Of a DNA stretch of 64,000 nt, positions 2,485-59,229 are shown in pieces (position 1 is the first letter of the stretch; every line of letters begins with the position of its first letter). A program made the translations under genes and the position numbers. The DNA comes from Mollicutes bacterium (lineage in GTDB: Bacteria; Bacillota_I; Bacilli_A; RF39; UBA660): the NCBI GenBank assembly GCA_012837765.1, contig DUQO01000018.1:16014-80013 (forward strand), written 5' to 3'. The notes below the pieces were generated by a model, which had not been told where the DNA came from, did no database searches, and saw only the letters and a list, made by a program, of their open reading frames with translations.

Positions 2485-5400
2485 TTAAATAATAGTTAAC
2501 AACTCAATAATATAAAATAACCAGTGTTTATCTAGTTTATTTATATTTAAAATTATTCTTAAGCGATTGCTTTTATATGTAACACTAAAGGCATTAGATA
2601 TGTCGCATGCTTTCATATATAAATCATTTACTTTCATATTTTTAGATGCTTCTTTAGAAAATATTAATTCAACATTTACTTTGGTTTGATTTACCTTTTC
2701 AATTCCCTTTTCTTTCGCTGCCTTTTCAAACCATTCTTCATACATATATATTTCCATTGATTCAGATACTTTTCCAAAACGATCCTCTAATTCACTCTTT
2801 ACTTTTAATAAACTCTCATAACTATCTATTTGATTTATTTTTTGATGAATTTCAATTTTTAAATCATCTTCTTTTACATAATTATCTGTAATATGAGTTT
2901 CTACATCTATTAAAGGTTTCTCTTCAAGTTCCTCATTTTTATCTGACAACTTAGTATTTCCCTTGATTCTATCTATTTCTTCTGCCAGCATCTTTAAATA
3001 TAACTCTATTCCAACACTATCGATAAAGCCGGCTTGTTCTCTACCTAATATATCTCCAGCTCCTCTTATTGATAAATCCCTGAGTGCTATAGAAAATCCA
3101 CTACCTAAAGCCGTAAATTCCTTAATTACGTTTAACCTCTTTTGTGCTGTTTCATTTAATATCTTGTTTTTGCTATACATTAAATATGCATAAGCTATTT
3201 TATTACTTCTTCCTACTCGTCCTCTAATTTGATATAACTGACTCAAGCCAAAATGATCTGCATCCATAATAATTAAAGTATTTACATTTGGAATATCAAT
3301 TCCTGTTTCTATTATTGTAGTGCATAGTAAAACATCATACTCGCCAGCAATAAATTTAATCATCGTATCTTCTATTTTTTGTTTTGGCATTTGCCCATGT
3401 GCAAATGTTACACGTGCATCAGGTACTAATTTTTTTATTTCAACTGCTCTATATTCAATATCAGCAACTTTATTATGCAATAAATATACTTGACCACCTC
3501 TTGATAATTCTTTATAAATAGCATCTTTAATTATGTAATCATTATATTCTAAAACATAAGTTTGAACTGGAAAACGGTTCATTGGTGGTGTTTCAATCAA
3601 AGACAAGTTTTTTATACCAAGCATTGATATTTGTAATGTCCTTGGAATAGGTGTTGCAGATAAGGTTAATACATCTATACTACTTTTGTACTCTTTAATT
3701 TTTTCTTTGTGAGTTACACCAAATCTTTGTTCCTCATCTATTACAAGCAATCCTAAATTATTAAATTTGACGTCTTTGCTGAGTAAGCGATGCGTCCCAA
3801 TTACAAAATCAATAGTTCCTTTGACAAGACCTTTTGTTATTTCTTTTACCTCTTTAGAAGTTGTAAATCTATTTAAAAGAGCTATGTTAACAGCATGATT
3901 TTTAAATCTTTCTATAGCATTTTCATAATGTTGATTAGATAGAATTGTTGTAGGACAAAGGAAAGCAACCTGCTTATTATCTTGTATTGCTTTAAAAATT
4001 GCCCTAAAAGCAACTTCTGTTTTTCCATAACCAACATCTCCACATAATAATCGGTCCATTGGAGAATCTTTTTCCATATCTTCTTTTATTTGAGTTACAG
4101 CTCTAAGTTGATCTCTTGTAGGTTCATATAAAAAGTCCTGTTCAAATTCTAATTGCTCCTTATTATCAGGTGAAAAAGCAAATCCTTTTTTAGCTTCTCT
4201 TTCAGCTGCTGTTTTAAGCAATTTACCAGCAATATCTTGAAGCTTGTTCTTGATGCGTACTTTTGTTTTTTGCCACTCTGTTCCACCTAATTTGTGTAAT
4301 GTTGGCGTTATTCCTTCATTTGATGAGTACTTCCAAATTAAATCAATTTTTTCAACCGGAATATATAATTTGTCATCATCTTTATATTTTATCTGTAAAT
4401 AGTCTTTCTTGACACCTTTTTTTACAAGAGTCTCTATACCACAGTATTTTCCTATTCCATGAATCTGATGAACAACATAGTCTCCTATATTAAGTTTGCT
4501 TAAATCTTTTATTTTTGTGCCATACTTGAATTGACTTTTATAAACTCCTTTAGACTTAATTTTCTTAAATAAGTCACATTCACCAATAACTACAATATCT
4601 TCAATAATAAAACCAGACGCTATTTCTTTTTTTATAACATTAATTTTATTATGCATAATATTATTTTTATCAGTTATGACACAATGTTGTTCTATAAAAA
4701 ATACAAAACTATCTATTTGATTTTTATTTTTTAAACATACAATGACTGTCATACCCAAAGATATATAGCTATTTAAATCATTATTTAGTCGTTCAACATC
4801 ACTTTCATATTTACGAATGGTTTTAATATTATACTTATCTATATATGCAAGTTTTACATCAGGTAAAATGTCATCTATATTCATCACATATAACTCATCT
4901 TCATAATTTATATCTTCAAAACGATTCATATATGATGTGTCTATATTATTTCCGTGCTCCTGATGATAATTAAAGATTTCCTCTTGAAGGTTTAAATAGG
5001 AATTTTTAAGTTGGTTATAATCTATATATACAATAATAGGATTATTGAGATAATCACTAATTTTACTTACATCACCATAAAGCGGCAAATACTTTTGGGC
5101 CTTTTTATCACTATCTACTTCATCTGCAATAAACTCATCAAAGGGATGAATGGTTATCTCATCAATCTTTGAAATTGATAATTGTGTATCTAAATCAAAA
5201 TAACGAATAGATTCAATTTCATCACCCCATAATTCTATTCTAATAGGATTTGATTCACTTATTGGAAAAACATCTACTATATAACCACGTGTACCCATTT
5301 CACCTGTTTTAGTAACTATCGTTTCGTTAGTATATCCTATTTTATATAAATCACTTATGAGCTTTTCCTTACCTATTGTCATACCAGATGACAATTTGAT

Positions 5401-5778
5401 AATACTGTTAATCCATTTTTCTTTCAAAGGAAGAAACCTTAAATATCCCATGAGATGTGTTACAACAAAATGTTTATTATCTGAAGAAATAATTGATTTT
5501 ATTGTTTCTAGACGTGTTACTTTTAGATCTGGGCTAATAGCTAAGGCTTCACTAGTAAGAAAATCATCCATTGGAAAAAGCAATGTATTATTTTCCTCTT
5601 TTTGTAACAATTGTTGTATTTTATTAGCTTCATATAATGAATTAGTTAAAACTATAATATTACGGTTCTGCTCCTTAAATATTTTTTTCAAATAAAGCAC
5701 TAAAAGGTCATCAGTAAAACCTGATAACCCTATTTTTCCACCTTTATAACTTTTAAACAGTTTATCAACGATTTGCAT
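2485..5778 (-). CDS. mfd: Transcription-repair coupling factor
   Basis: 1097 aa with DEAD/helicase motifs GYGKTEVA, DEEQRFGV, SATPIPRT and the QLYQIRGRVGR motif. Confidence 0.9.
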   Translation of the reverse strand: MQIVDKLFKSYKGGKIGLSGFTDDLLVLYLKKIFKEQNRNIIVLTNSLYEANKIQQLLQKEENNTLLFPMDDFLTSEALAISPDLKVTRLETIKSIISSDNKHFVVTHLMGYLRFLPLKEKWINSIIKLSSGMTIGKEKLISDLYKIGYTNETIVTKTGEMGTRGYIVDVFPISESNPIRIELWGDEIESIRYFDLDTQLSISKIDEITIHPFDEFIADEVDSDKKAQKYLPLYGDVSKISDYLNNPIIVYIDYNQLKNSYLNLQEEIFNYHQEHGNNIDTSYMNRFEDINYEDELYVMNIDDILPDVKLAYIDKYNIKTIRKYESDVERLNNDLNSYISLGMTVIVCLKNKNQIDSFVFFIEQHCVITDKNNIMHNKINVIKKEIASGFIIEDIVVIGECDLFKKIKSKGVYKSQFKYGTKIKDLSKLNIGDYVVHQIHGIGKYCGIETLVKKGVKKDYLQIKYKDDDKLYIPVEKIDLIWKYSSNEGITPTLHKLGGTEWQKTKVRIKNKLQDIAGKLLKTAAEREAKKGFAFSPDNKEQLEFEQDFLYEPTRDQLRAVTQIKEDMEKDSPMDRLLCGDVGYGKTEVAFRAIFKAIQDNKQVAFLCPTTILSNQHYENAIERFKNHAVNIALLNRFTTSKEVKEITKGLVKGTIDFVIGTHRLLSKDVKFNNLGLLVIDEEQRFGVTHKEKIKEYKSSIDVLTLSATPIPRTLQISMLGIKNLSLIETPPMNRFPVQTYVLEYNDYIIKDAIYKELSRGGQVYLLHNKVADIEYRAVEIKKLVPDARVTFAHGQMPKQKIEDTMIKFIAGEYDVLLCTTIIETGIDIPNVNTLIIMDADHFGLSQLYQIRGRVGRSNKIAYAYLMYSKNKILNETAQKRLNVIKEFTALGSGFSIALRDLSIRGAGDILGREQAGFIDSVGIELYLKMLAEEIDRIKGNTKLSDKNEELEEKPLIDVETHITDNYVKEDDLKIEIHQKINQIDSYESLLKVKSELEDRFGKVSESMEIYMYEEWFEKAAKEKGIEKVNQTKVNVELIFSKEASKNMKVNDLYMKACDISNAFSVTYKSNRLRIILNINKLDKHWLFYIIELLTII

Positions 5779-5790
5779 TTAAGCACATCC

Positions 5791-6354
5791 TCATCTGCGT
5801 CCATTGTATTTGTTCATGAGATTGATAAAATCCATTTTTATAAAATCTATTAAAATGTCTTTGGTTTCTTCTAAAATTTCTTCTAGTATTTCTTTTTCCC
5901 CTTTTGAAAAATGCCCTAACACATAATCTCTTGCATCAATATCCTTATTATTTGAAATTCCAATTTTTAATCTTTTATATTCTTGAGTAGATAAATGTTG
6001 TTCTATATTTTTCAAACCATTATGTCCTGCTGAACCACCTTGCATTTTTAATTTATAAGTTCCTAATTTTAAATCTAAGTCATCATTAACAACTAAAATA
6101 TCATTAACATCAATTTTAAAGTATCGCATGAAATCTGCTATTACTTGGCCTGATAAATTAATATAATGTTGAGGTTTTAATAATATTACTTTTTCGCCAT
6201 CAATATTAACTTCAGTATATAAAGACCCTTTAAATTTTTTGTTAATTACTACCCCTAATGATGAAGCTAAAAAATCAATAACCATAAAACCTACGTTATG
6301 TCTAGTATTCTGATACTCTTTCCCTGGATTTCCTAAACCAACGATCAATTTCAT
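5791..6354 (-). CDS. pth: Peptidyl-tRNA hydrolase
   Basis: MKLIVGLGNPGKEYQNTRHNVGF. Start placed at the internal Met to avoid overlapping the upstream gene. Confidence 0.85.
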   Translation of the reverse strand: MKLIVGLGNPGKEYQNTRHNVGFMVIDFLASSLGVVINKKFKGSLYTEVNIDGEKVILLKPQHYINLSGQVIADFMRYFKIDVNDILVVNDDLDLKLGTYKLKMQGGSAGHNGLKNIEQHLSTQEYKRLKIGISNNKDIDARDYVLGHFSKGEKEILEEILEETKDILIDFIKMDFINLMNKYNGRR

Positions 6355-6358
6355 ACAA

Positions 6359-7081
6359 TCACTCTCCAAACATCTTTCTAACTTCCCTAGTGTAGTTTCC
6401 TTTCCTGTCATGTACAAAAAGAGGCGATTCTATTTTTATACCTTCTTTTCCATTTTTAATTCCTTCAATCAAAATAATGTTACAAGTTTCATCTTTATTA
6501 GGATAAATAAAGCGAATACGCTTCGGTTCAATATTATACTCTTTCATTTTATTCAATATTTCAATCATTCTATCAGGACGATGAACTATTCCAAAATAGC
6601 CTTGGTTTTTCAACAATTTTTTTGATACTTTTAAAATGTCATCAATATTTAACATTACTTCATGCCTTGCGACGGTCTTACAATAATTATTATTAACAAG
6701 ACTATCTTTATTATATTTAAAATATGGTGGATTTGATAACACTATATCAAAAGAGTCAGAATCAAAATGTTTATCTATTGTCCTTACATCTTCATTTAAT
6801 ATTTTGATTTGGTTTTTTAAGTTGTTAATTTCTACAGATTTGATAGCAAGTTGATATATAGGCTCTTGTATTTCTACACCTATAATATTAGCATTGGTTC
6901 TCGTTGATAACAGTAAAGGAATAGGTGCATTACCTGTTCCTAAATCAATGATGTTTTTAACTTTAGATCGAATAGTAATGAAGTTAGCAAGTAAAACAGA
7001 ATCAAGTGAAAAATTAAAATACTCTGTATTTTGCACTATCTTCATTCCTTCATATCCTACTAAATAATTAATTACTTCCAT
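6359..7081 (-). CDS. SAM-dependent N6-adenine methyltransferase, YabB/TrmN6-like (tRNA m6A37)
   Basis: GTGNAPIPLL SAM motif and NPPYF catalytic motif. Position after ricT matches B. subtilis yabB. Confidence 0.6.
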   Translation of the reverse strand: MEVINYLVGYEGMKIVQNTEYFNFSLDSVLLANFITIRSKVKNIIDLGTGNAPIPLLLSTRTNANIIGVEIQEPIYQLAIKSVEINNLKNQIKILNEDVRTIDKHFDSDSFDIVLSNPPYFKYNKDSLVNNNYCKTVARHEVMLNIDDILKVSKKLLKNQGYFGIVHRPDRMIEILNKMKEYNIEPKRIRFIYPNKDETCNIILIEGIKNGKEGIKIESPLFVHDRKGNYTREVRKMFGE

Positions 7082-12664: not shown

Positions 12665-15121
12665 TTCGTTGGTTTCCTCTTCTGTTTTTATTTCACCCTC
12701 TTCTTCAGTTTCTTCTTTTTCAACGTTAAAGCTTGTCGTTACTTTTTGTTCATCTTTTAAAGTAATCAATCTCACTCCTTGTGTTACTCTACTCATAATT
12801 GAAATTTGATCAATTGGTATTCTAATTACCATTCCACTATCTGTAATTATAATTAGATCTTGAGTTTCATCTACTACCTTAAAGGAAACTATTCCTCCAT
12901 TTTTATCTGTGCTATTTATTGTTTTAACTCCTTTGCTTCCTCTATGAGTTAAACGATATTCGCTAACTTTAGTTCTTTTACCATAACCGTTTTCTGTAAC
13001 AACTAACACTTCTTTTTCATCTTCTGCTATTTCGATTCCAACGCATTTTGAATCTCCTAAATTAATTCCTTTTACTCCAGAAGCAGTTCTTCCCATTATA
13101 CGAACTTCATCCTCATCGAATCGAACCATTCTTCCAGCTGAAGAGGCTAATAAAATTTGATCATTACCATTAGTTTTTCTTACCCCTATCAATTCATCTC
13201 CATCTTTAAGAGTGATAGCTATTTTTCCGCTAGAACGGATGTTTTCAAACTCTTTCATCTCTACTCGTTTGACTTGTCCGTTTCTTGTAGCAAAAATCAA
13301 ATTATAATCGTGTTCTTCTGCATGAACAGGGAGAACTGAGTTTACGTACTCATCAGATTCTATCGGTAAAATGTTTACTATTGGCAAACCTTTTGCTTGT
13401 CTACTGTACTCTGGTATTTCATATCCTTTTACTCGGTAAACTTTACCCTTATTAGTAAAGAATAAGAGATATTCATGAGTTGTCATTGTTACCAAATCTT
13501 GTACGAAATCTTCTTCATTAGTCGTCATTCCTTTAACACCAACACCACCTTTGTTTTGTAATTTATATGTGTCTGTTGGAATTCTTTTGATATATCCTTT
13601 ATTAGTAAGAGTAATTATTATATCTTCCACTGGAATAAGTGACTCATCTTCGATATATTCAATAGTCTCATTATCAATATAGGTTCTTCTCTCATCTCCA
13701 TATTTTTGTTTTATCTCAAGTAATTCGTTTTTCACAATTTCTAGAACCTTTTCTTCACTCGCTAATATTGATTTTAATTCGCTTATAAGTATTAATAAGT
13801 TTTTTAATTCCTCATCTATTTTTTCCCTTTCAAGGCCTGTCAATCTTCTCAATTTCATTTCTAGGATTGCTTCAGATTGAACATCAGTTAAACCAAATTT
13901 CTCCATCAAAGATTTTTTAGCAATAGCATCATCATTAGATGATTTTAATATTTTTATTATTTCGTCAATATGATCTAGTGCAATTTTCAATCCCTCTAAT
14001 ATATGAGCACGTTTTTCTGCCTTATCTAAATCAAATTGCGTTCTTCTATAAATAACTGTTCGTTGGAAATCAATATATTTTTCTATAATTTCTTTTAACC
14101 CAAACGTTCTTGGTTGTCCATCATGTAACATCAATAGATTTATACCATAACTAGTTTGTAATGGTGTATGTTTATATAGATTATTTAATATAACATTAGC
14201 TTTTGCGTCTCTTTTTAATTCTATTATTATCTTAACGCCATTTTTTACAGAAGATTCATCATATAAGTCAGATATTCCATCGATGACCTTATCTCTTACC
14301 AATTCTGCTATCTTTTTCTTTAAAGTTGTTTTATTTACTTTATATGGAATTTCTGTAATGACAATTTCTGATTTATTATTTTTTTCTACAATTTCAGCTT
14401 TCCCTCTGATTGTAATGGAACCCTTACCGGTTTCATAAGCTTTTTTGATACCACTATTACCTAAAATAATACCACCAGTTGGAAAATCTGGTCCTTTAAT
14501 ATGTTTCATCAATTCAAGAACATCTATATCGTGATTATCTATATAAGCCACGCATCCATCTATTACTTCAGATAAATTATGCGGTGGAATATTAGTTGCC
14601 ATTCCTACAGCAATTCCCATTGTCCCATTAACTAAAATGTTAGGAAATCTACTAGGTAATACCACTGGCTCCTTTTTCGTAGCATCAAAGTTATCTGTAA
14701 AATCAACAGTATTTTTATTAATATCTCTTAATAATTCAGTTGCTATTTTAGCTATACGAGCTTCGGTGTAACGATAAGCAGCTGCGCCATATCCGTCTAT
14801 TGAACCAAAGTTTCCGTGTCCATCAATCAATGGATATCTATAACTAAAATCTTGCGCCATTATTACAAGAGAATCATATGCTGCGGTGTCACCATGTGGG
14901 TGATAATTACCTATTACATTACCAACTGTTTTAGCGCTCTTCTGATATGGTTTTTCTGGTGTATAACCAGACTCATACATTGTATATAAAATTCTTCTGT
15001 GTACTGGTTTTAATCCATCTCTTAAATCGGGTAAAGCTCTAGATACAATAACGCTCATTGAATAATCCAAAAAGCTTTTTTCCATTTCTTTCGCTATGTT
15101 TACTTCGTATATTTTATCCAT
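12662..15121 (-). CDS. gyrA: DNA gyrase subunit A
   Basis: 819 aa with the active-site region AAMRYTEARIAKIA (Tyr) and an acidic C-terminal tail. Confidence 0.95.
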   Translation of the reverse strand: MDKIYEVNIAKEMEKSFLDYSMSVIVSRALPDLRDGLKPVHRRILYTMYESGYTPEKPYQKSAKTVGNVIGNYHPHGDTAAYDSLVIMAQDFSYRYPLIDGHGNFGSIDGYGAAAYRYTEARIAKIATELLRDINKNTVDFTDNFDATKKEPVVLPSRFPNILVNGTMGIAVGMATNIPPHNLSEVIDGCVAYIDNHDIDVLELMKHIKGPDFPTGGIILGNSGIKKAYETGKGSITIRGKAEIVEKNNKSEIVITEIPYKVNKTTLKKKIAELVRDKVIDGISDLYDESSVKNGVKIIIELKRDAKANVILNNLYKHTPLQTSYGINLLMLHDGQPRTFGLKEIIEKYIDFQRTVIYRRTQFDLDKAEKRAHILEGLKIALDHIDEIIKILKSSNDDAIAKKSLMEKFGLTDVQSEAILEMKLRRLTGLEREKIDEELKNLLILISELKSILASEEKVLEIVKNELLEIKQKYGDERRTYIDNETIEYIEDESLIPVEDIIITLTNKGYIKRIPTDTYKLQNKGGVGVKGMTTNEEDFVQDLVTMTTHEYLLFFTNKGKVYRVKGYEIPEYSRQAKGLPIVNILPIESDEYVNSVLPVHAEEHDYNLIFATRNGQVKRVEMKEFENIRSSGKIAITLKDGDELIGVRKTNGNDQILLASSAGRMVRFDEDEVRIMGRTASGVKGINLGDSKCVGIEIAEDEKEVLVVTENGYGKRTKVSEYRLTHRGSKGVKTINSTDKNGGIVSFKVVDETQDLIIITDSGMVIRIPIDQISIMSRVTQGVRLITLKDEQKVTTSFNVEKEETEEEGEIKTEEETNE

Positions 15122-15132
15122 GACATTACCTC

Positions 15133-18188
<3,056 letters not shown>

Positions 18189-25075: not shown

Positions 25076-26145
25076 TACTCGCCAGCTAGCTTTCTTTTTA
25101 AATCCTCTGTAATAAGTGGCTCTATTATTTCATCTAATTTACCTTCCATAATGCGATCTAATTGCATTACAGTAAGATTTATACGATGATCAGTAACTCT
25201 ATTTTGAGGATAATTATAAGTTCTAATTTTTTCAGAACGATCCCCTGTACCTATCTTTGAACGACGAATTGCACCTTCTTCTGCCTCTTTTTTTCTTTGT
25301 GCTTCTTCATAAATTTTATTTTTTAATATTTTAAGAGCTTTTTCCTTGTTTTTTATCTGACTACGTTCATTTTGACAAGTAACTACTAATCCTGTTGGAA
25401 TATGTGTTATACGAATTGCACTGTCTGTAGTATTTACTGATTGTCCACCAGCACCACTACTACGATATACATCTATCTTTAAATCACTATCTTTTATTTC
25501 TACATCTAATTCTTCTTGTTCTGGTGTAACAACGACAGTTGCAGTTGATGTATGAACACGACCTTGTGTTTCTGTTGCTGGAACCCGTTGAACCCTGTGA
25601 GCTCCACTTTCATATTTTAATTTTGAATAAACATTATCGCCTTTTATCATAAATTCTATTTGACTAAAGCCACCGGCTTCACTTGGCATACTATATATCA
25701 ATTCAGTCTTAAACCCCATATTAGCAGCATATCTAGTATACATATCATATAAATCACCTGCAAAAATATTTGCTTCAGCTCCTCCAGCTGCTCCTCTTAT
25801 TTCAACAATAACATTTTTATTATCGTTTTCATCCTTAGGTACTAAAAGAATCTCTATCTCTTCTTCTAGTTGTTCTTTTTGTTCTTCCAAACTATTCAAT
25901 TCTTCCTTTGCCATAGGACCTAATTCGCTATCATGAATAAGATTTTTTACATCATCAATTTGTTTTAATATGTTTTTATATTTTTCATATGCTGTAACAA
26001 TATCTTCTAAAGCAACTTTCTCTTTTGATATTTTTGTTGCTTTTTTAATATCATTTATTACTTCTGTAGTCATCAAAAGATTATTTAATTCGTCATATTT
26101 TGCTTTGATGTTCTCAAGTCTTTCTATCATCTTATCACCTTCCAC
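25075..26145 (-). CDS. prfA: Peptide chain release factor 1
   Basis: PATE tripeptide (RF1-type PxT) and the GGQ motif. Confidence 0.9.
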   Translation of the reverse strand: MEGDKMIERLENIKAKYDELNNLLMTTEVINDIKKATKISKEKVALEDIVTAYEKYKNILKQIDDVKNLIHDSELGPMAKEELNSLEEQKEQLEEEIEILLVPKDENDNKNVIVEIRGAAGGAEANIFAGDLYDMYTRYAANMGFKTELIYSMPSEAGGFSQIEFMIKGDNVYSKLKYESGAHRVQRVPATETQGRVHTSTATVVVTPEQEELDVEIKDSDLKIDVYRSSGAGGQSVNTTDSAIRITHIPTGLVVTCQNERSQIKNKEKALKILKNKIYEEAQRKKEAEEGAIRRSKIGTGDRSEKIRTYNYPQNRVTDHRINLTVMQLDRIMEGKLDEIIEPLITEDLKRKLAGE

Positions 26146-47578: not shown

Positions 47579-48295
47579 ATGCTTCATTTTGTAATCTTTG
47601 ATGACAATGAGTTGATAAGAGAAAAAGTAAACAAAGTAATAACTAAATTAATGTTACCGACGGATATAGAATATAAAACGTTGGAATTTTCCAAATACAA
47701 TAAAAGTTTTGCTCAATTGATAGAAAGAAGAGGAGAAAAGAAAATATATATATTAGATATAGAAGTAGATTCTTACTCTGGTTTGGATGTTGCAAGAAAA
47801 ATAAGAGAGAGAGATTGGGAAAGCATTATAATAGTTTTAACAGCACATTATGAACTTGCATATGATGCCTTTAAAAATAGACTAATGTTGTTAGATTTTA
47901 TTTCAAAATTTGATAATTATGAACAAAATTTATATGATGTTTTAAAATTAGCATTAAAAGCATCACATGTTAAAAAACAATTTTCTTTTACTTCCAATAG
48001 AATGGCATATAGGGTTGATTACGATGATATTTTATATATTATCAAGGATACAGCAAAAAGAAATACAATTGTTAAAACTTTTTCTAAAGAATACCCTGTA
48101 TCACTTAACTTAAATGAAATAATGGCAATGTTGCCAGATAATTTTATTCAAACACATAGAGCATGTACAATTAATAGGGATAATGTAAAAACAATTGATT
48201 TTAAAGAAAACATTATAACATTTATTAATAATGAAAAAATATCAATGTTATCAAAAACATATAAGAAAGAAGTGAAAGAACATGTCTTTAGTTGA
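47579..48295 (+). CDS. LytTR-family response regulator (AgrA-like)
   Basis: Receiver with phospho-acceptor Asp in YILDIEVDS. C-terminal LytTR module ...ILYIIKDTAKRNTIV...QTHRACTIN. Confidence 0.8.
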   Translation: MLHFVIFDDNELIREKVNKVITKLMLPTDIEYKTLEFSKYNKSFAQLIERRGEKKIYILDIEVDSYSGLDVARKIRERDWESIIIVLTAHYELAYDAFKNRLMLLDFISKFDNYEQNLYDVLKLALKASHVKKQFSFTSNRMAYRVDYDDILYIIKDTAKRNTIVKTFSKEYPVSLNLNEIMAMLPDNFIQTHRACTINRDNVKTIDFKENIITFINNEKISMLSKTYKKEVKEHVFS

Positions 48296-49595
48296 TTTGA
48301 TTGGCCCCTCTTTTATCTTCAACATATTTCAACTAAAACTATCATCTGTAATAATAAAAGAAAAAATAGACTTTAAAAACGGAAAAAACATATTTTTATT
48401 TATACTTTTAATAGTAATGCTTTCCTTTTCAACTTTAGTTTTTAATAATTTTTTACGAGTGGTATTCAATTTCTTATGTTTGCTCTTTTTCTATTATTTT
48501 ATTCATAACAAAGGAATAAATGTAGCATTTATCGTTTCGTTTATTGCCTTCTTTTTATTTTTTATGTCAGAAATAATATTTTCTTCAATGTTATACTTTG
48601 TTAGTCAAATATGGGATATATCTATTGATATTGAAAAAAATACATTGCTATATTTAATATCAAATATATCAATTGGTTTTATGGCTATTATAATATATCG
48701 AATAAAAAAAATAAAACAAATTATTTTTACTTTGATTAAAAATTATGAAAAAACCAAATTTACTAAAACCATGTTGATAATACTAATGTTAATTTTTGTA
48801 TTAGTAAATAAAAATTTTTTATTGTTTGATTTTTATTTTGATTATCTTTTGAATCTATTTATTGTAGCGTTATTTTGCTTAATAGCTTATTTATTATTAA
48901 AGGAAAAAAATGCAAATGTGTCATTATCTAAAAAATATGATCAACTGTTTAGTTATTTAGAAAATTATGAAAAAGAACTTAATAAAAAAAGTATAATAAT
49001 TCATGAATTTAATAATCAACTAATTGCTATAAAAGGATTCAATGATAAGAAAAATAAGCATTTAGAACAATACCTAAATTCTATAATTAAAGATAATCAA
49101 AAGGGTGGAGAAAAGTTTCTTGATGATATGGAAAACCTTCCAAAGGGAGGATTAAAAGGATTAATTTATTATAAATTAGGATATCTGAAAGATGAAGGAA
49201 TTAATGTTGTAACTGATATTAGTTCAACTGTTAGAAAAAATGCCTTCGCTAAATTTGATCCTTCTTTATATAGAGATATTTTAAAAATAGTAGGTGTGTT
49301 GTTAGATAATGCTGTAGAGGCTGCAAAAGAATCAAAAGAAAAGCAAATATCATTAGAAATCTTTTGTACTAAAAATGATTTTAATATTGTATTATCTAAT
49401 ACCTTTTGTAATAATATTGATCTTGAAAAAATAGATGAATCAAAATATTCGACAAAAGGTAAGGATAGGGGATATGGACTTGCATTAGTAAAGCAAATAG
49501 TTAAAGATAATCCTAAATTGCAAGTTAAAAAAGAAATAATTAATAATTTCTTTGTTTCGACATTAACAATTGAACTAAAAAACACTTCTAATTAG
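48282..49595 (+). CDS. AgrC-like (HPK10) membrane sensor histidine kinase
   Basis: Six N-terminal TM helices, H-box IIIHEFNNQLIAIKG, GHKL motifs LLDNAVEA and GYGLALV. Confidence 0.7.
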   Translation: MSLVDLIGPSFIFNIFQLKLSSVIIKEKIDFKNGKNIFLFILLIVMLSFSTLVFNNFLRVVFNFLCLLFFYYFIHNKGINVAFIVSFIAFFLFFMSEIIFSSMLYFVSQIWDISIDIEKNTLLYLISNISIGFMAIIIYRIKKIKQIIFTLIKNYEKTKFTKTMLIILMLIFVLVNKNFLLFDFYFDYLLNLFIVALFCLIAYLLLKEKNANVSLSKKYDQLFSYLENYEKELNKKSIIIHEFNNQLIAIKGFNDKKNKHLEQYLNSIIKDNQKGGEKFLDDMENLPKGGLKGLIYYKLGYLKDEGINVVTDISSTVRKNAFAKFDPSLYRDILKIVGVLLDNAVEAAKESKEKQISLEIFCTKNDFNIVLSNTFCNNIDLEKIDESKYSTKGKDRGYGLALVKQIVKDNPKLQVKKEIINNFFVSTLTIELKNTSN

Positions 49596-49611
49596 ATAGA
49601 AGTGTTTTTTA
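49578..49611. terminator. Bidirectional terminator between the convergent kinase and agrD
   Basis: Perfect 13-bp inverted repeat AAAAACACTTCTA / TAGAAGTGTTTTT. Confidence 0.65.
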
Positions 49612-49616
49612 GATTA

Positions 49617-49751
49617 TTATTCTATTATTGATTTTGGTGCTTCTGGTTCATCAAACCAAAAAAGAATGCATCCAACATGAGCAGCATTAGAAGCAAGTAA
49701 GCCAACTACTGCTGCAAAGCGTCCTATAATCTTTAGTGTCCTCTTTTTCAT
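49617..49751 (-). CDS. agrD: AgrD-like autoinducing peptide precursor (44 aa)
   Basis: My translation MKKRTLKIIGRFAAVVGLLASNAAHVGCILFWFDEPEAPKSIIE: amphipathic leader, conserved Cys, C-terminal DEPEAPK tail (compare S. aureus ...CDFIMDEVEVPKEL). RBS GGGAGGAATATT. Below the ORF-track cutoff. Confidence 0.7.
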   Translation of the reverse strand: MKKRTLKIIGRFAAVVGLLASNAAHVGCILFWFDEPEAPKSIIE

Positions 49752-49784
49752 AATATTCCTCCCTTCTCATTCTTTATCAAATCA

Positions 49785-50390
49785 TCATTTTTTTTGATGA
49801 TATGATTTGTAGTTGTTATATGGTAAATTTAGTAATCTATATGAAATGGGTATTATTAGTAAAGATTCAATTACTAATGAAAATATAAGGCAATTTGATA
49901 CTAAGTTATTGCTTATAAAAAATGACAACAAACCATAAAAAATAGCTGTCAAAGAAGAAAGTAATTTATATTTTTTTCTTCTTTTTTTATTTATTAGTGG
50001 TCGTTTATGAGTGTCTGCAGGAGCATATAAAATAATAATAATAAAGCAAATAATAAAAATTAATATTTTTATAAATAAATTTATTACTAATACTGAGGCT
50101 AAATAAGATGTAAAAATAAAAACACTACCAGATAAAAACAAACAAATTCTGCTATTAGGAGCATGCAATCCAAAAGCATATAATCTAATACCACTAAATA
50201 TAATTGTTAATAACAAAAATTCTTTTAAAAGATTTAGAAAAAAACTGACTGTAACAAAAAGTATTGTTTTTCCAAGTAACAAGTATATTGCTTCTAAACC
50301 ATAACTAATTTTTTCGATATGTATATTGTTGTATGAGTTGTCATTTTTTTCTATCACCATAAGTAACTTATTTATAACTGCATTTTTCAT
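49785..50390 (-). CDS. agrB: AgrB-like membrane peptidase/cyclase
   Basis: Catalytic region FGLHAPNSRICLF (His/Cys) and YAPADTHKRP, 201 aa polytopic membrane protein. Confidence 0.8.
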   Translation of the reverse strand: MKNAVINKLLMVIEKNDNSYNNIHIEKISYGLEAIYLLLGKTILFVTVSFFLNLLKEFLLLTIIFSGIRLYAFGLHAPNSRICLFLSGSVFIFTSYLASVLVINLFIKILIFIICFIIIILYAPADTHKRPLINKKRRKKYKLLSSLTAIFYGLLSFFISNNLVSNCLIFSLVIESLLIIPISYRLLNLPYNNYKSYHQKK

Positions 50391-51609: not shown

Positions 51610-54114
51610 ATGATGAAAATGGGTTTTCTTAAAAGTGTTTTTAATCATGAATACAGGGAACTAAAAAAATTTAATGCTATTGCTACTAAAGTAGATGAGT
51701 TAGATAGTGTTATGCAGAAACTATCTGATTATGAATTAAAGGCTAAAACAAATGAATTTAAAGAGAGATTGGCAAATGGTGAAACACTAGATGATTTATT
51801 AGTTGAAGCTTTTGCGGTAGTAAGAGAAGCGGCGTTTCGTACTATAAAAGAAAAACCATATTTTGTACAAATTTTAGGTGGTATTACAATTCACTATGGT
51901 AATATTGCTGAAATGAAAACAGGTGAAGGAAAAACCTTATCTTTAACAATGCCTGCTTATTTAAATGCATTAACAGGTGAGGGTGTACATGTTATTACAG
52001 TAAACGAATATCTAGCTAGTTTTCATGCTGGATGGATGGGACAAATATTTGAATTTCTTGGTTTAACTGTAGGTGTTAATTTACGAGAATTAGACTTTGA
52101 AGAAAAGAAAAATGTATACAATTGCGATATCATGTATACAACAAATAGTGAGTTAGGTTTTGACTATTTAAGAGATAACATGGTAGTAAATAAAGAAAGA
52201 AGAGTTCAAAGAGGACTCAATTTTGCAATCGTTGACGAGGTTGACTCAATTTTAATAGATGAAGCACGTACTCCACTAATAATTTCTGGTGGCTACATGA
52301 AATCTTTAAATTTATACAAAGATGCTGATATGTTTGCAAAAACATTGCGTGAAAATGAAGGTTATATAAAAGATGAAAAAACCAATGCTATTAGTTTAAC
52401 AGAAGAAGGTTCAATCAAAGCTGAAAATTATTTTAAAATTGAAAACTTATATGATATTAAACATTCAGCTCTAGTTCATCATATAAACCAAGCTATTAAA
52501 GCTAATTTTGGTATGAAAAAAGATGTGGATTATGTTGTACAAGATGACGAAGTGGTAATAGTAGATCAATTTACCGGACGTCTAATGAAAGGACGAGCTT
52601 TTAGTGAGGGATTACATCAAGCTATAGAAGCAAAAGAAGGAGTAACAATAAAAGAAGAAACTCGTACTTTAGCAACAATTACTTTTCAGAATTTATTTAG
52701 AATGTATAAAAAGTTATCAGGTATGACTGGTACTGCAAAAACAGAAGAAGAGGAATTTAGAAACATATATAACATGTATGTTATTCAAATACCTACAAAT
52801 AGACCAGTTATAAGAAAAGACTTGCCAGATTTAATATATACAAACAAAGAAGGAAAATACAATGCAATTATTCGTGTTATACAAGAATGTTATAAAAATG
52901 GTCAACCAGTTTTAGTAGGAACTATTGCTATTGAAACAAGTGAACTTATTAGCAATACGTTACGAAAAAAGAAAATACCACATGAAGTATTAAATGCTAA
53001 AAACCACGCGAGAGAAGCTGAAATTATAGCTAAAGCAGGAGAAAAAGGTGCAGTTACTATTGCAACTAACATGGCTGGTCGTGGAACGGATATCAAATTA
53101 GGAGAAGGAGTTAAGGAACTAGGTGGTTTATTTGTTATAGGTACTGAACGTCATGAATCAAGACGTATTGATAACCAATTAAGAGGTCGTGCAGGACGTC
53201 AAGGAGACCCTGGCGTTTCCCAATTCTTTGTCTCGTTAGAAGATGATATCATGGTTCGTTTTGGTTCTGATAGAATTAAAGGAATGATGCAGTCTTTAGG
53301 TTTTGGTGGGGATCAAGCAATTCGTAGTAAGATGTTTACAAATGCTATGGAAACAGCCCAAAAGAGAGTAGAAGGATATAACTTTGATATTAGAAAACAA
53401 TTACTTCAATATGATGATGTCATGAACAGACAAAGAGAAATAATATATGAAAAAAGAAATAGTATTTTAGATGAAGATTCAATTCATGACTATATATTGA
53501 AAAGTATAATGGATTATATAGAAAGATTAGTATTTAGTCATTTAATAGAAGAAAAAGTATTAACATTAAACGATAAATCAGAGATTATTGAAGCTGTAAA
53601 TGAAAATTTATTAAAGAACGACAGAATGTCAGTTGATGATATAAAAGAAGATGATGAAAATACAATAGTAAGAAAAATATATGAAAAAGTAATACATGAT
53701 TATGAGCAAAAAATAAAAGATCTGCCAAATGATATAATCAACGATTTTGAAAAAGCAATTCATTTAAATGTTATCGATAGACATTGGATGGAACATATTA
53801 ATACAATGGAACATTTAAGAGAAGGAATAGGTTTAAGGGGTTACGCTCAAGAAAACCCTCTTCAAGCTTATGTTTCAGAAGGATTTGCTCTATTTGAAGA
53901 AATGTTAGCTAGAATTGATGAACAAACAACAATATATATATTGAAGGCAGAAATAAAACAAAATTTAGAGACTAAAGAAGTTGCAAATATAGCTACTAAT
54001 GAAGATAAGAGTAAAACAATAAAGAGACAACCAAAAAAAGTAAATAAGATAGGAAGAAATGAGCCTTGCCCATGTGGCAGTGGCAAGAAGTATAAACAAT
54101 GTTGTGGTAAATAA
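51610..54114 (+). CDS. secA: Preprotein translocase ATPase SecA
   Basis: 834 aa with DEAD-motor motifs and the C-terminal zinc motif CPCGSGKKYKQCCGK. Confidence 0.95.
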   Translation: MMKMGFLKSVFNHEYRELKKFNAIATKVDELDSVMQKLSDYELKAKTNEFKERLANGETLDDLLVEAFAVVREAAFRTIKEKPYFVQILGGITIHYGNIAEMKTGEGKTLSLTMPAYLNALTGEGVHVITVNEYLASFHAGWMGQIFEFLGLTVGVNLRELDFEEKKNVYNCDIMYTTNSELGFDYLRDNMVVNKERRVQRGLNFAIVDEVDSILIDEARTPLIISGGYMKSLNLYKDADMFAKTLRENEGYIKDEKTNAISLTEEGSIKAENYFKIENLYDIKHSALVHHINQAIKANFGMKKDVDYVVQDDEVVIVDQFTGRLMKGRAFSEGLHQAIEAKEGVTIKEETRTLATITFQNLFRMYKKLSGMTGTAKTEEEEFRNIYNMYVIQIPTNRPVIRKDLPDLIYTNKEGKYNAIIRVIQECYKNGQPVLVGTIAIETSELISNTLRKKKIPHEVLNAKNHAREAEIIAKAGEKGAVTIATNMAGRGTDIKLGEGVKELGGLFVIGTERHESRRIDNQLRGRAGRQGDPGVSQFFVSLEDDIMVRFGSDRIKGMMQSLGFGGDQAIRSKMFTNAMETAQKRVEGYNFDIRKQLLQYDDVMNRQREIIYEKRNSILDEDSIHDYILKSIMDYIERLVFSHLIEEKVLTLNDKSEIIEAVNENLLKNDRMSVDDIKEDDENTIVRKIYEKVIHDYEQKIKDLPNDIINDFEKAIHLNVIDRHWMEHINTMEHLREGIGLRGYAQENPLQAYVSEGFALFEEMLARIDEQTTIYILKAEIKQNLETKEVANIATNEDKSKTIKRQPKKVNKIGRNEPCPCGSGKKYKQCCGK

Positions 54115-54160
54115 CCTCGCAAAGCCCCATAAAATAAGGGCTCGTGAGGTTTTTTCTTTT
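54113..54160 (+). terminator. Terminator after secA
   Basis: ACCUCGCAAAGCCCC...AAGGGCUCGUGAGGU followed by a U6 run. Confidence 0.65.
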
Positions 54161-54318
54161 TTCAAAAAGTTGTACTTTTTACTCAAAAGGTGCTTCTACA
54201 TACGTTTTACATACGAATTTTTCGGTGATTTTGAGCATAATCCTGACAAATTAATTGTAAAAAATATGATATAATTAAATAGACAAATAGTAATTTGTAA
54301 AACGATCGGAAGTGAATC

Positions 54319-55032
54319 ATGAATCAAGAAAAGTTTGGTAAATTTATAAAAGAAATAAGAAAGAAAAATAATTTAACACAAAAACAATTAGCAGATAAAT
54401 ATAATGTTACTTATCAAGCAGTTAGTAAATGGGAAAACGGAAGAAATATGCCTGATACTACACTGATAAAACAAATGAGCAATGATTTTGATATTAGTTT
54501 AGAAGAAATGTTTGAGGGAGAGTTAAAAGAAAACAAAAATAGTAAACAAAACAAGAAAAATATAATTCTTATATCTCTACTAATAATATGTTTAATAGTT
54601 ATATTTATTTTATCAATAAATTTTCAAAATAATAATGGTAATTTTAATTTTAAAACTTTATCTAGTAATTGTGATAATTTCAATATTTCAGGAAACATTG
54701 CATACAATGATAAAAAAACTTCTATTTATATTTCTAATATAAAGTATTGTGGAGGTAACGATACTACTGAATATAAAGAAATTGAATGTGTATTATATGA
54801 ATCAAATAATGACATTGAGAAAAAAATAAGTTCTTGTAATTATAAGGAAGAAAAAAATATTACATTAGAAAATTTTTTACAAACTGTTACCTTAACTGTT
54901 GATAATTATAAAAAAATTTGTAAGGAATATTCTGAAAATAGTTTATTTTTATCAATTAATGCAACAGATAATAACGGAAAGATTACTACTTACAAAATTC
55001 CATTGACATTAGAACAAAGCTGCTCTAATTAA
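54319..55032 (+). CDS. XRE-family HTH regulator with single TM and Cys-containing extracytoplasmic domain
   Basis: N-terminal HTH KNNLTQKQLADKYNVTYQAVSKWENG, TM segment IILISLLIICLIVIFILSI, C-terminal domain with 6 Cys. Confidence 0.6.
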   Translation: MNQEKFGKFIKEIRKKNNLTQKQLADKYNVTYQAVSKWENGRNMPDTTLIKQMSNDFDISLEEMFEGELKENKNSKQNKKNIILISLLIICLIVIFILSINFQNNNGNFNFKTLSSNCDNFNISGNIAYNDKKTSIYISNIKYCGGNDTTEYKEIECVLYESNNDIEKKISSCNYKEEKNITLENFLQTVTLTVDNYKKICKEYSENSLFLSINATDNNGKITTYKIPLTLEQSCSN

Positions 55033-55102: not shown

Positions 55103-55801
55103 ATGGAAAGGAGCAAAATTTTTATGAAAAAAATATTTTTTACAATTACAATGGCATGTATATTGTGTCTAGGTGTGTGTGCTTGTACAGCTAATACCGA
55201 ATTAAAGAAATTGCCAAATCCAGAAATAACGGAAGGAATACGAGGAGAACAATTTGGTATAGATAAGAACATTAATGAGGAAACAATTGATGAATATCTT
55301 AATAGACCCGATAGTGTGTATCGTGATATGAGAATGCTTAAAGATCCAGGTAATTATGAAGCGATTGGAGGAGATTCTTATCTTTCTGGTTTTGTAAAAG
55401 GATTTGAAGTAGTGCCATATCCATTATTAGTAAATGTTATAGGATTACCAGAAGAAGTTGGTGATACCTATACAGGAAAAACATTATATACATTAAACGA
55501 TAATGGGAAATACATTGCAAATTATGAAGAATCACTTGAAATCTTAGAATATTATTTTCCTAAAGATAAAAATATATTTTTAATGTGCGGTGGTGGAGGT
55601 TATGCTGGAATGACTAAAACTATGTTAGTATCACTTGGATGGGACGAAAATAAAATTTATAATGTTGGTGGATATTGGTATTATGAAGGAACTAATAATG
55701 TAGAAGTGAAAAAAACAAACTCTGATAACTCAATATCATATGATTTTTGGAAAGTAGTTTATCATGATATTGATTTTGATAATTTACATGAGGTAAAATA
55801 A
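55103..55801 (+). CDS. Lipoprotein, possibly rhodanese-like fold
   Basis: Signal/lipobox MACILCLGVCAC. IFLMCGGGGYAG...KIYNVGG resembles the rhodanese CxxGxR...VYNLxGG blocks, but the Arg is replaced. Confidence 0.4.
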   Translation: MERSKIFMKKIFFTITMACILCLGVCACTANTELKKLPNPEITEGIRGEQFGIDKNINEETIDEYLNRPDSVYRDMRMLKDPGNYEAIGGDSYLSGFVKGFEVVPYPLLVNVIGLPEEVGDTYTGKTLYTLNDNGKYIANYEESLEILEYYFPKDKNIFLMCGGGGYAGMTKTMLVSLGWDENKIYNVGGYWYYEGTNNVEVKKTNSDNSISYDFWKVVYHDIDFDNLHEVK

Positions 55802-56664
55802 TGAAAAAATTAATATTTTTTTCACTTACTATGATTTTTTGTTTGTTATTAGTTGGATGTAATAATAAACAAGATACATTTTCTTTAGATAAAGAATATT
55901 ATCAAAATAATTCGTTTAATGAATTAGATAAAAATACATTTGATGATTTAATTAACAATAAAAAATCTTTTGCTATATTTATATATCAACCGTTATGTAC
56001 AACTTCTTATGAATTTAATAAAATTTTAACTGAGTTCGCTAATCAATATCAAATAAGTTTTTACAAGATGTCATTTTCTGATATGAAGGAAACTGAGTTA
56101 AAGGAATATATTAAATATTATCCATCTTTAGTAATTTATCATGAAGGAGAAATAGTAGATTATTTAGATGCCAATAGAGATTCAGATAGTGAATATTATA
56201 AAAGTGTTGATGGATTTAAAAAGTGGTTTTCTAATTATGTGTCAATTCAAAAAAAGAATGATAATGATAATTTGATTTTAGAGGAAGAAACTAATAATGA
56301 TACAAAAATTGATGCAAAGTTAGAAGATATTGTATATGATGAAAATAAAGTAAATATTTATTTCTTTTGGGGTAATGGATGCCCTCATTGTGAAGAAGAA
56401 TTCAAATTTTTGAAAAGTATTGAAACTGAATATGGAAATTATTTTACATTGAATACATTTGAAGTCTGGTATAGTAAAGATAATGCGGAAATATTAGAGC
56501 AATTTGCTAATGCTATGGGAGATGAAGTAAAAGGTGTTCCATATACCATTATTGGGAATAAAACATTTTCAGGATTTAGTAAAAATTATGAAGAACAATT
56601 TTTAAATGCTATAAAAGAGCAATATCATAATAGTTATGATGTTTATTTTGATAAAACACAATGA
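55801..56664 (+). CDS. Lipoprotein with thioredoxin/DsbA-like CPHC motif
   Basis: Lipobox LLLVGC. WGNGCPHCEEEF is a CxxC redox motif (CPHC as in DsbA). TAATG overlap with the upstream gene. Confidence 0.55.
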   Translation: MKKLIFFSLTMIFCLLLVGCNNKQDTFSLDKEYYQNNSFNELDKNTFDDLINNKKSFAIFIYQPLCTTSYEFNKILTEFANQYQISFYKMSFSDMKETELKEYIKYYPSLVIYHEGEIVDYLDANRDSDSEYYKSVDGFKKWFSNYVSIQKKNDNDNLILEEETNNDTKIDAKLEDIVYDENKVNIYFFWGNGCPHCEEEFKFLKSIETEYGNYFTLNTFEVWYSKDNAEILEQFANAMGDEVKGVPYTIIGNKTFSGFSKNYEEQFLNAIKEQYHNSYDVYFDKTQ

Positions 56665-57048
56665 CAAATTACAATTTATCTAACTATAAACAGTTGAAAT
56701 TAGTGTTTTTTACATACATTTTTACATACGTTCTGTAGAGTTTGGTGTTCAAATTTTAGTTGTAGAAAATACAAATTCTTTGTAATTTCAACAAGAAATT
56801 TGTAAAAATTGCAGAAAAATTGCAGATTCTACACCATGTGGCTCAGGTAAAAAATATAAACAATGTTGTGGAAAATAACTTGCAAACCCACATAAAATAA
56901 TAAAAATATCGATTAGACTCATTTTATATTTGATGTTGTGGTTTTAGTTTTTAATTTTAAAAGGTGATCATAAAATATATAATGAATTTATGATATAATT
57001 GTAAGTATGAGAAAATGACAAATAATAATTTGAAAGGGAGTTGATTTT

Positions 57049-57204
57049 ATGAAAAAGAAAAAATTATTATATGCAATTACTTGTGCTTTAGGAAGTGGAA
57101 TGATAGGATTTTTTGCAGCAGATTTAAATGAGGTATATAGAATAGCATTATTTACTATTGGAGTTGTTTTAATGGTAAGTTCAATTATAAAATTAAGTAA
57201 ATAA
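57049..57204 (+). CDS. Small membrane peptide (51 aa)
   Basis: My translation MKKKKLLYAITCALGSGMIGFFAADLNEVYRIALFTIGVVLMVSSIIKLSK. RBS AAAGGGAG, upstream TGATATAAT. Confidence 0.3.
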   Translation: MKKKKLLYAITCALGSGMIGFFAADLNEVYRIALFTIGVVLMVSSIIKLSK

Positions 57205-57449
57205 ATAGTAATTTGAAAGTGAGATAATAGACGGAAGATAAGCAAATATTGCTTGATAATATAAATAAAGTACATACTAAATAATAAATTACAATTTATC
57301 AATTAGATTATCAATAAATTTTGATAGTCTTTTTTTTGTTCAACTTCAGATTGGTTGTGGTAGAAAGGTTAAACATTGTTTATTTAAAATTCCAAATTTA
57401 AAGGATTTTAAAAAATATGATATAATTTTAAATAGAGGAGACTTTAATT

Positions 57450-58115: not shown

Positions 58116-59229
58116 ATGGAAATGAAACAAATAAAACAAGAGTTTGAAACATATAAAAATGAAATTGAAGAAATATGGAGGCTTCTTTGACTTAACAGAA
58201 AAGGAAGAAAAAATTAAAGAATTAACTATTCAAATGAACAATCCAGACTTTTGGAATGATAAAGAAAAAGCAGAGAAAATAATCGAAGAATGTAATAATC
58301 TTAAAACAATTGTTGGGAATGTATCGACATTAAAAAAGACTATAAACGACAATATAGAAATGATAGAAATGTTGGATGAAGAACCAAATGATGAAATAGT
58401 TAGTATAATTGAGGCAGAAATGCCAGGTATAGAAAAGAAACTTGATGATCTTAGGCTAGAAGTAATATTGAATGAACCATATGATAAGAATAATGCTTTA
58501 CTAGAAATTCATGCAGGGGCAGGTGGAACAGAGTCTTGTGATTGGGCTAGTATGCTTATGCGTATGTATTTAAGATGGTGTGATGTAAAATCTTATAAAT
58601 ACGAGATACTAGATGTACAAAACGGAGATGAAGCTGGAATAAAAAGAGCTAATATCTTAATAAAAGGGTTTAATGCATATGGATATTTAAAAGGGGAAAA
58701 AGGAGTTCATCGATTAGTTCGTATCTCACCTTTTGATGCTAATAAAAGACGTCATACATCTTTTGCAGCAATTGAAGTTATACCACAAATAGATGATAGT
58801 ATTGAAGTTGAACTAAAGGATTCAGAACTAAAGATAGACGTATATCGTAGCAGTGGTGCTGGTGGACAATCAGTAAATACAACAGACAGTGCGGTAAGAA
58901 TCACGCATCTACCTACTGGAGTTGTTGTAACATGTCAAAACGAACGTAGTCAGATTAAAAATAAGGAAAAAGCTCTTCAAGTATTAAAAAGTAAATTATA
59001 TCAATTGGAATTAGAAAAAAGAGATAAATCCTTATCAGTAATGAAAGGAAATCTTTCCGAAATTAATTTTGGATCGCAAATAAGATCCTATGTTATGCAT
59101 CCTTATATGATGGTTAAAGATCATCGCACGGAAGAAGAAACAAGTAATGTTTTGAAAGTATTAGATGGGGATATAGATATGTTTATAGAAAAGTATTTGA
59201 AGGGGCGAATTAGTAATGAAAAAAAATAA
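58116..59229 (+). CDS. prfB: Peptide chain release factor 2, with programmed +1 frameshift at CTT TGA C (58185-58191)
   Basis: Frame 0 reads MEMKQIKQEFETYKNEIEEIWRLL then TGA. SD-like GGAGG sits 3 nt upstream of CTT TGA C. The +1 frame continues DLTEKEEKIKEL...SPF...GGQ through 59229. Parallels B. subtilis ...DFRGSL*DLESKE... Confidence 0.85.

Follow-up and report, generated by a model that had tools for sequence, protein, structure and literature searches.

The window, i.e. the whole 64-kb stretch of DNA that was analysed, carries secA at 51610-54114 on the plus strand (834 aa), assigned from the ORF list, its translation, and matches to Pfam SecA_DEAD, SecA_PP_bind, P-loop_SecA, SecA_SW, and SEC-C; public gene calls begin SecA 3 codons later. 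The SecA C-terminus reads ...EPCPCGSGKKYKQCCGK*, and its final 14 codons plus stop form the proximal copy of a putative attachment site. A second copy lies on the same strand, the two cores being 2764 nt apart, and an island of 2.8 kb with three co-directional genes separates these two secA-end copies. Further downstream, prfB (RF2; 58117-59229, plus strand; Pfam PCRF and RF-1) is the conserved neighbour that bounds the hotspot.

The prfB gene starts at ATG 58117 and contains the classic programmed +1 frameshift site GGAGG CTT CTT TGA C at 58178-58190 (CTT TGA C at 58184-58190), and the prfB ORF listed from TTG 58144 represents the second frame only. Another release-factor homologue at 25120-25839 (minus strand) is 44% identical to RF2 over aa 112-349 and is presumably prfA. 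Just 5′ of cspA-hpf-secA lies an agr-type quorum-sensing locus (48282-50390 in the window; 3964-6772 in locus L220), which comprises an AgrB-like gene (49785-50390, minus strand) and a HATPase_c_5 histidine kinase gene (48282-49595), with a LytTR response regulator known from the L220 gene calls.

The secA end and its second copy

By self-BLAST of the window, 56834-56900 was aligned with 54070-54137 (83.8% over 68 nt, E 6.5e-15; next matches E > 0.2), and the same 54070/56834 pair was returned by a repeat search of the window. Within the repeat proper (56834-56878 versus 54070-54114), 38 of 45 nt are identical and all seven differences are synonymous, including a three-base switch of the Ser codon (AGT versus TCA); the likeness extends 22 nt beyond the stop, to 56900 and 54137. 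The proximal core (putative attL, 54070-54137, plus strand) accordingly consists of PCGSGKKYKQCCGK* and a common tail of 22 nt, and its assignment is based on the repeat pair and on the crossover between loci L211 and L161 described below. The distal core (56834-56900, plus strand) consists of the fragment together with the 5′ half and loop of an element-type hairpin.

The fragment frame, TPCGSGKKYKQCCGK*, occupies 56831-56878; the original prediction had correctly reported the feature and had placed it at 56826-56870, which is 5-8 nt too low. Its last 14 residues are those of SecA, so that the reported identity with the secA C-terminus and the synonymous nature of the nucleotide differences were both confirmed, and a T residue stands in place of the first zinc-ligand Cys of SecA (STPCG versus EPCPCG). 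The surrounding 30-codon open frame (56786-56878) has no ATG, GTG, or TTG start, yet its match to the Pfam SEC-C motif reaches 27.2 bits (cut-off 20.4). Translation into a small SEC-C peptide was considered and rejected, given the missing start codon and the stops upstream of equivalent copies elsewhere. In a tblastn search of the window with SecA, matches were confined to 51610-54114 and the 14-codon core, and no second set of SecA motor domains (DEAD, PPXD, scaffold/wing) was detected.

Folding revealed a strong hairpin (54113-54151, -18.4 kcal/mol) followed by a T run immediately 3′ of secA. This element-type intrinsic terminator (hairpin and T run, 54113-54157, plus strand) now ends secA and forms part of the P′ arm, and hairpins of the same type, whose two halves co-vary, are present in L001, L060, L034, L221, and L225; it was missed by a consensus terminator scan, since its loop is longer than the scan permits. 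On the 3′ side of the fragment, such a hairpin is reduced to its 5′ half and loop (CTTGCAAACCCACATAAAATAA, -2.2 kcal/mol). The description of this tail as a decayed terminator thus held with respect to its weaker fold, while its nature proved different: it is the truncated left part of the arm of an older cassette. The present secA end can be written as GGCAGTGGCAAGAAG... followed by the CCTCGCAAAGCCCC hairpin, and the fragment-type end as GGCTCAGGTAAAAAA...CTTGCAAACCC.

The same island with both cores was found in L220, an independent ENA assembly from another sample (SecA 99% identical; 99.4% over 4328 bp). The fragment is therefore not an assembly artefact, and its failure to reappear on resequencing, which had been named as what would refute the feature, is contradicted by this second assembly.

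The island and its right flank

The first cargo gene (54319-55032, plus strand) encodes an XRE-family helix-turn-helix protein of 237 aa with a transmembrane segment (Pfam HTH_3, 1.8e-16), and a similar XRE gene is the first after the P′ repeat in L001, L179, L186, L199, L200, L203, and L208. The second (55103-55801, plus strand) encodes a predicted lipoprotein of 232 aa with a signal/lipobox-like N terminus, for which no Pfam or NCBIfam match was obtained. The third (55801-56664, plus strand) encodes a lipoprotein of 287 aa with two thioredoxin-like regions (Pfam Thioredoxin, 2.4e-10; Thioredoxin_2 and Thioredoxin_3 of Pfam in the C-terminal half; NCBIfam matches weak). No recombinase and no match to either integrase family described below was detected in the island or in the whole 64-kb window, and the island retains the putative attL and attR together with this cargo of an XRE regulator, a lipoprotein, and a thioredoxin-like protein, without integration or transfer genes.

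Each end of the island bears a direct repeat of the same type. The P′ arm repeat TACATACgtttTACATAC (54197-54214, plus strand) has a 4-nt spacer and lies at +127 from the core start, and the P arm repeat TACATACattttTACATAC (56711-56729, plus strand) has a 5-nt spacer and lies at -123 from the core. The tandem TACATAC-N4/5-TACATAC occurs exactly twice in the window, compared with 0.01 occurrences expected by chance. From their geometry and their co-variation with the cassette (see below), the direct repeats TACATACGTTTTACATACG are candidate binding sites of an integrase arm domain. Interpretation of the TACATAC repeats as a WalR-like or other host regulator site was dropped, since empty sites have no such repeats and the type of repeat follows the cassette. 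Closer to the core, the P arm contains a tandem of two AAAAATTGCAG units (56804-56825, plus strand), which is kept in the same arm family elsewhere and is possibly an accessory-factor site. Read as a peptide, the P arm of the window gives CKNCRKIADST, a sequence also found in L178, L193, L199, L200, L201, and L212, and L060 has the same arm.

A motif, (GAT)AAATAGTAATTTG, was noticed at 54285-54297, 57020-57032, and 57203-57215 (plus strand), 20-30 nt 5′ of the first start codon in cassettes. In the window it precedes the XRE gene, a 51-aa ORF, and a DUF3781 relic, and it is also present in L001, L061, and L225. An inverted form, CAAATTACAATTT, follows the last gene of the island (56665-56677), and another inverted form lies at approximately 57285-57299; both forms together give 5 matches in the window versus 1.2 expected. 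The motif may be a common leader or operator of cassettes.

An older cassette has left a relic between the fragment and prfB (56901-57279, plus strand), which was recognised from a truncated P′ arm, a duplicated cassette 5′-UTR motif, the 51-aa ORF, and the DUF3781 remnant. In the relic P′ arm, the 3′ half of the hairpin is deleted and the repeat is decayed; 56901-56932 aligns with the arm-repeat region of L221 after a 37-nt gap, an alignment that is suggestive only. The segment 57201-57279 is 79.7% identical over 79 nt to the cassette leader and the start of the first cargo gene (DUF3781) of L225, and within it 57234-57278 corresponds to 15 codons of the DUF3781 protein followed by a stop, with the ATG changed to ACG and 73% identity to L225 over aa 2-16. 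Native chromosome was considered for the right flank of the fragment and rejected, as comparison with L221, L225, L226, and L227 showed a truncated element arm. Since the right flank consists of a decayed arm and a DUF3781 relic, the fragment marks a junction inside an array of two cassettes that has decayed, and at least one deletion appears to belong to the history of this flank.

Recurrence in related genomes and the point of strand exchange

A scan of species-representative genomes with SecA yielded 80 loci from uncultured Bacilli labelled Mollicutes or Tenericutes (closest, 89% identity), and a metagenome scan for exact matches to the arm repeat of the window yielded 55 contigs with arrays of up to five cores and cassettes of 0.7-3.5 kb. 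Many of the 80 loci have one to four extra same-strand CGSGKKYKQCCGK* copies downstream of secA. With a nucleotide profile applied to the 80 related genomes and 55 metagenome contigs, 93 secA ends and 102 extra same-strand fragments were collected; these form 76 cassettes with a median length of 1.86 kb, and arrays hold up to 5 copies. In approximately 100 fragments of other genomes, many of which have stop codons just upstream, the left boundary is at the identical nucleotide (CCATGTGG), and the sequence upstream of this boundary is not secA coding sequence but a conserved non-coding arm common to other mobile cassettes. Longer extra copies, which extend over roughly 58 residues at the SecA C-terminus (aa 243-300 of the C-terminal query), were observed in L008 (17272-17412), L013 (13049-13219), and L026 (14172-14342), where they lie in a 719-bp cassette common to these three loci; some elements may recombine further upstream in secA.

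Nearly every copy has a direct repeat approximately 125-160 nt to its left and, to its right, a hairpin followed by a direct repeat at approximately +95 to +140. The repeats of the window (+127/-123; 4-nt/5-nt spacers) fit this geometry, which is common to about 100 other copies in related uncultured Bacilli. The repeat type varies by cassette (ACATACG, AGATACG, AGATAAG, AGATCCG, TGTCCAC, TGTGTGC, TGTTTGC). Among cassettes with exact repeats at both ends, the type is equal at the two ends in 30 of 32, whereas types agree across the junction of neighbouring cassettes in only 3 of 14. Matched cassette ends and mismatched junctions indicate that the unit is the stretch between two cores, with a split attP.

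Unoccupied sites were found in L227 (SecA 85% identical), L226 (81%), L016, and L058, each of which has a single core, no arm repeats, and unrelated terminators, with prfB following secA after 150-650 nt (about 150 nt in L016 and L058). L227 and L226 are the closest relatives that keep secA-prfB synteny, and in both of them one core and simple terminators are followed by a pilin-like ORF and then prfB. This ORF has a prepilin-type N-terminus (MKNKGFPLIELLAVIVILGVIL...; 12581-12988 in L226 and 9618-9998 in L227) and is missing from the window. Strains of the same species yielded neither an empty site nor an excised circle, and the closest empty sites belong to relatives whose SecA is 81-85% identical. 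Among occupied relatives whose SecA is 89% identical to that of the window, L225 has DUF3781, GyrI-like, glyoxalase, and PadR genes with AGATCCA arms after secA (12698-15770), and L001 has an XRE membrane protein gene with ACATACG arms (12740-13282); this difference in cargo at equal SecA identity points to turnover of the hotspot at about the species level.

The position of strand exchange was deduced from two loci of the same species, L211 and L161 (secA 98.5% identical), which have a cassette, X, in common (99.2% identity). L161 has an extra cassette, Z, between secA and X, which is absent from L211. The junction of L211 equals the secA junction of L161 up to ...GATCCATGTCC and differs from it from core nucleotide 3 on; from CCTTGTGG on, through the hairpin and the P′ repeat, it equals the Z-X junction of L161. 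This comparison places the exchange at the 5′ boundary of the core, near the C-P-C Pro codon, so that an incoming element supplies a new 14-codon end and terminator and the old end moves distally. For the window, it follows by analogy that 54070-54151 probably came with the island and that 56834-56878 probably represents the previous secA end. Because the divergence between the two ends is synonymous only, they have separate evolutionary histories that were joined by recombination. The earlier suggestion of a recombination scar from a different lineage was sound to this extent, although the polarity that it implied is reversed by the crossover: the present end is the incoming one, and the fragment is the earlier.

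In other loci, the DNA between the copies encodes tyrosine recombinases (Arm-DNA-bind_4, SAM-like, and catalytic domains), which are of full length in L053, L055, and L072 and in many cases truncated. In L177 the order is that of a prophage (secA, core, ACATACG repeat, integrase, cI-like repressor, cro-like gene, phage genes), with the arm type of the window; its integrase (384 aa) is convergent, with its stop 9 nt away from the repeat. The L203 unit measures 10.5 kb and has matched TAGATCA arms and an integrase of the L177 family, whose members have Phage_integrase and Arm-DNA-bind_4 domains. Tandem arrays that include integrase-bearing units were found in L203, L165, and L011.

Phage contigs of IMG/VR encode integrases that are 45-50% identical to the other (non-L177) family, and a SecA-tail fragment lies 170-600 nt beyond the integrase gene. 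In these contigs, the P repeat, fragment, P′ repeat, and integrase are contiguous, and the repeats match in type and lie at approximately -158 and +94 to +116; this contiguous P-core-P′ arrangement has the structure of an attP, for related integrases rather than for the cassette of the window. A search of viral contigs for the exact TACATACG repeat gave 0 matches, and a search with the single L177 integrase sequence gave a marginal match only. With a three-sequence integrase alignment, 3 loci were obtained from viral contigs, of which 2 have a P′ arm but no SecA-like core in the contig. By tblastn, only generic integrases (approximately 34% identity) were found in cultured phages with an island integrase, and the 22-aa SecA tail retrieved from phage records mostly host secA in prophage or contaminated records.

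Of the 102 fragments, 73 keep the zinc-motif frame and 64 have the stop at the same codon. Their Ser codons are varied (AGT 57, TCA 20, TCG 9, AGC 8, TCT 7), and every Gly codon occurs. Such a pattern is in keeping with a role as the real SecA tail for as long as the element adjoins secA, and it accounts for the synonymous-only divergence of the two copies in the window. Cassettes also recur between species: an interior is 98-99% identical among L059, L065, and L071, where the secA 3′ regions are 73-77% identical, and the 719-bp cassette is 99-100% identical in L008, L013, and L026 (secA 83.5-95%), at different array positions. The 145 cassette ORFs include restriction-modification, Fic, GNAT, NERD, kinase, AbiEii, and XRE regulator genes, and integrases number only 9.

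Probable integration at the secA end, alternative explanations, and known systems

The fragment is very probably the distal attachment site (an attR-type junction) of an integrase-less 2.8-kb island that was site-specifically integrated in the 3′ end of secA. The attP would have consisted, in this order, of a P arm with a direct repeat, the point of crossover, 45 nt that duplicate the final 14 codons and stop of secA, the terminator hairpin, and a P′ arm in which the direct repeat recurs. Recombination between this attP and the end of chromosomal secA would be catalysed by an arm-binding tyrosine integrase, at the Pro codon within the zinc motif C-P-C. Once the element is in place, secA would read into the 14 codons and terminator of the element, by which the essential gene stays intact, and the former secA end would be left untranslated on the far side of the element. 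Repeated integrations would stack cassettes into arrays; the previous end in the window (56834-56878) would stem from an older cassette, whose decayed remains lie between the fragment and prfB. The empty site before the island would read secA ...GAGCCTTGC joined to CCATGTGGCTCAGGTAAAAAA...CTTGCAAACCC. The island probably entered with, or was moved by, an integrase that was supplied in trans or has since been lost.

A lost secA2 had been offered as another origin of the fragment, and more generally the fragment might be the remnant of a secA2 or other SEC-C-motif gene decayed to its last codons. The SEC-C score and the identity of the protein with the SecA end speak for this, but just the last 14 codons are present, the upstream frame has neither a start codon nor SecA similarity, and the left boundary at one nucleotide in about 100 fragments elsewhere, many with stops just upstream, adjoins a non-coding arm common to unrelated cassettes. 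Random decay of a paralogue would not repeatedly leave the exact same piece beside arm repeats, and this origin is considered extremely unlikely. Equally little credence is given to an assembly artefact or to a tandem duplication that copied the secA end region locally and then drifted. Two direct copies 2764 nt apart on one strand would be expected of a duplication, but the order of motifs (core, TACATAC repeat, genes, TACATAC repeat, core) is not that of a tandem duplication, the seven differences are all synonymous and include the three-base Ser switch, the interior has no nearby paralogue (nor are cassette interiors in relatives paralogous to adjacent DNA), and the same structure exists in the independent assembly; the original judgement that no recent local duplication had occurred was upheld by the motif order and the synonymous-only divergence.

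A somewhat better, though still small, chance is given to arrival of the cassette at the secA end by homologous recombination without an integrase, e.g. by transformation, with crossovers in secA and in the cores of 45-70 nt. The cores are 80-93% identical between genomes and could offer short homology, the window has no integrase, and near-identical cassettes occur where secA is only 73-84% identical, a distribution that any route of DNA uptake could produce. Against this, the crossover between L211 and L161 lies at the extreme 5′ edge of the homology and not inside it, and integrase-less cassettes keep exactly matched arm repeats, which suggests selection for a recombinase substrate. Moreover, 45 nt at approximately 85% identity is poor flanking homology for RecA-type exchange. 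Site-specific integration by an arm-binding integrase, as set out above, is the preferred reading.

Elements that integrate at the 3′ end of a gene and bring a replacement end with them are established, as are tandem accretion and cis-mobilizable elements (CIMEs), which are flanked by att sites and have lost their integrase (PMC5704250, PMC4701971). Prophages, ICEs, and IMEs are known in the 3′ ends of tRNA or protein-coding genes, e.g. streptococcal rpsI, rplL, guaA, fda, and tRNA-Lys (PMC4701971, PMC5704250). The locus resembles these cases in its flanking direct repeats, the completion of the target by the proximal copy, the empty sites in relatives, the arm-binding tyrosine integrases (here in relatives), and the arm-type repeats on both sides of the core. 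It differs from them in the target, which is the zinc-finger-coding end of secA, in the lack of an integrase in the element of the window, and in the hosts, which are uncultured Mollicutes-like Bacilli of digesters, rumen, and gut. In the literature searched, coverage of which is incomplete, no report of the secA end as attB or attachment site was found, and secA is absent from the ICE/IME surveys retrieved.

A CIME keeps attL and attR and lacks integration and transfer genes (PMC5704250); CIMEs and tandem accretion are credited to Pavlovic 2004 and Bellanger 2011 in the summary given in PMC5704250. The island of the window is alike in having attL and attR, no integration or transfer genes, and a tandem position at one att site. 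Unlike CIMEs, integrase-less cassettes are here the majority, with a median of 1.9 kb and each with its own matched type of arm repeat, several near-identical cassettes occur in species with divergent secA, and the integrase-bearing partners look prophage-like rather than conjugative. The feature of the window is thus of a known kind; it departs from the integrated elements only in having no integrase inside, which is exactly the definition of a CIME, and its mobilisation in cis is putative.

Similarity to integron arrays is seen in the short cargo units of 1-3 genes, the repeated recombination site between them, and the fixed chromosomal position. Unlike in integrons, there is no intI or attI beside the array, the head of which is secA; the sites are attP-like, approximately 290 nt long and with arm repeats, and not attC-type imperfect palindromes, and the recombinases are of the phage-integrase type with Arm-DNA-bind_4. 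SecA2 of Firmicutes and Actinobacteria is also a second secA-like sequence, but it is a full-length paralogue, whereas the present one has 14 codons and no start. The island is not an integron cassette, and the fragment is not a secA2 remnant. In tycheposon-type islands at tRNA genes of marine cyanobacteria, tyrosine recombinases integrate repeatedly, and partial target-gene copies are left between stacked cargo segments, some of them without a recombinase; in the present case, the target is a protein-coding end that must stay translatable, and the lineage is another one.

The mechanism is ordinary, and its context is moderately interesting. A 'pseudo-secA' fragment of this kind is a junction marker that delimits mobile cargo downstream of secA in many uncultured Bacilli of gut, rumen, and digester. 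Elements that target an essential gene must carry a working zinc-finger tail, and the attachment site is therefore under protein-level selection, which provides a simple sequence handle by which the elements can be found together with what they carry. Were the cassettes moved in trans, the arrays would amount to a gene-capture system. It is conceivable, though less likely than not, that the integrase-less cassettes of 1-3 kb are more than decayed prophages and make up a self-standing class of hitchhikers with a complete split attP, their own arm-repeat dialect, and a translatable mimic of the SecA tail, on which phage-type integrases act in trans with exchange across species, and that the secA-prfB gap serves uncultured Mollicutes-like Bacilli as an integron-like reservoir of genes for defence and the cell surface.

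Contigs were observed to end 20-900 nt after secA in L001, L002, L009, L017, L018, L027, L036, L049, and L051, and likewise in L052, L074, L076, L080, L223, and L224, and L221 has a scaffold gap. These ends are consistent with strain-variable or repeated cassette arrays that break short-read assemblies at the hotspot just after secA, and the cassette junctions are probably the reason why many contigs break there.
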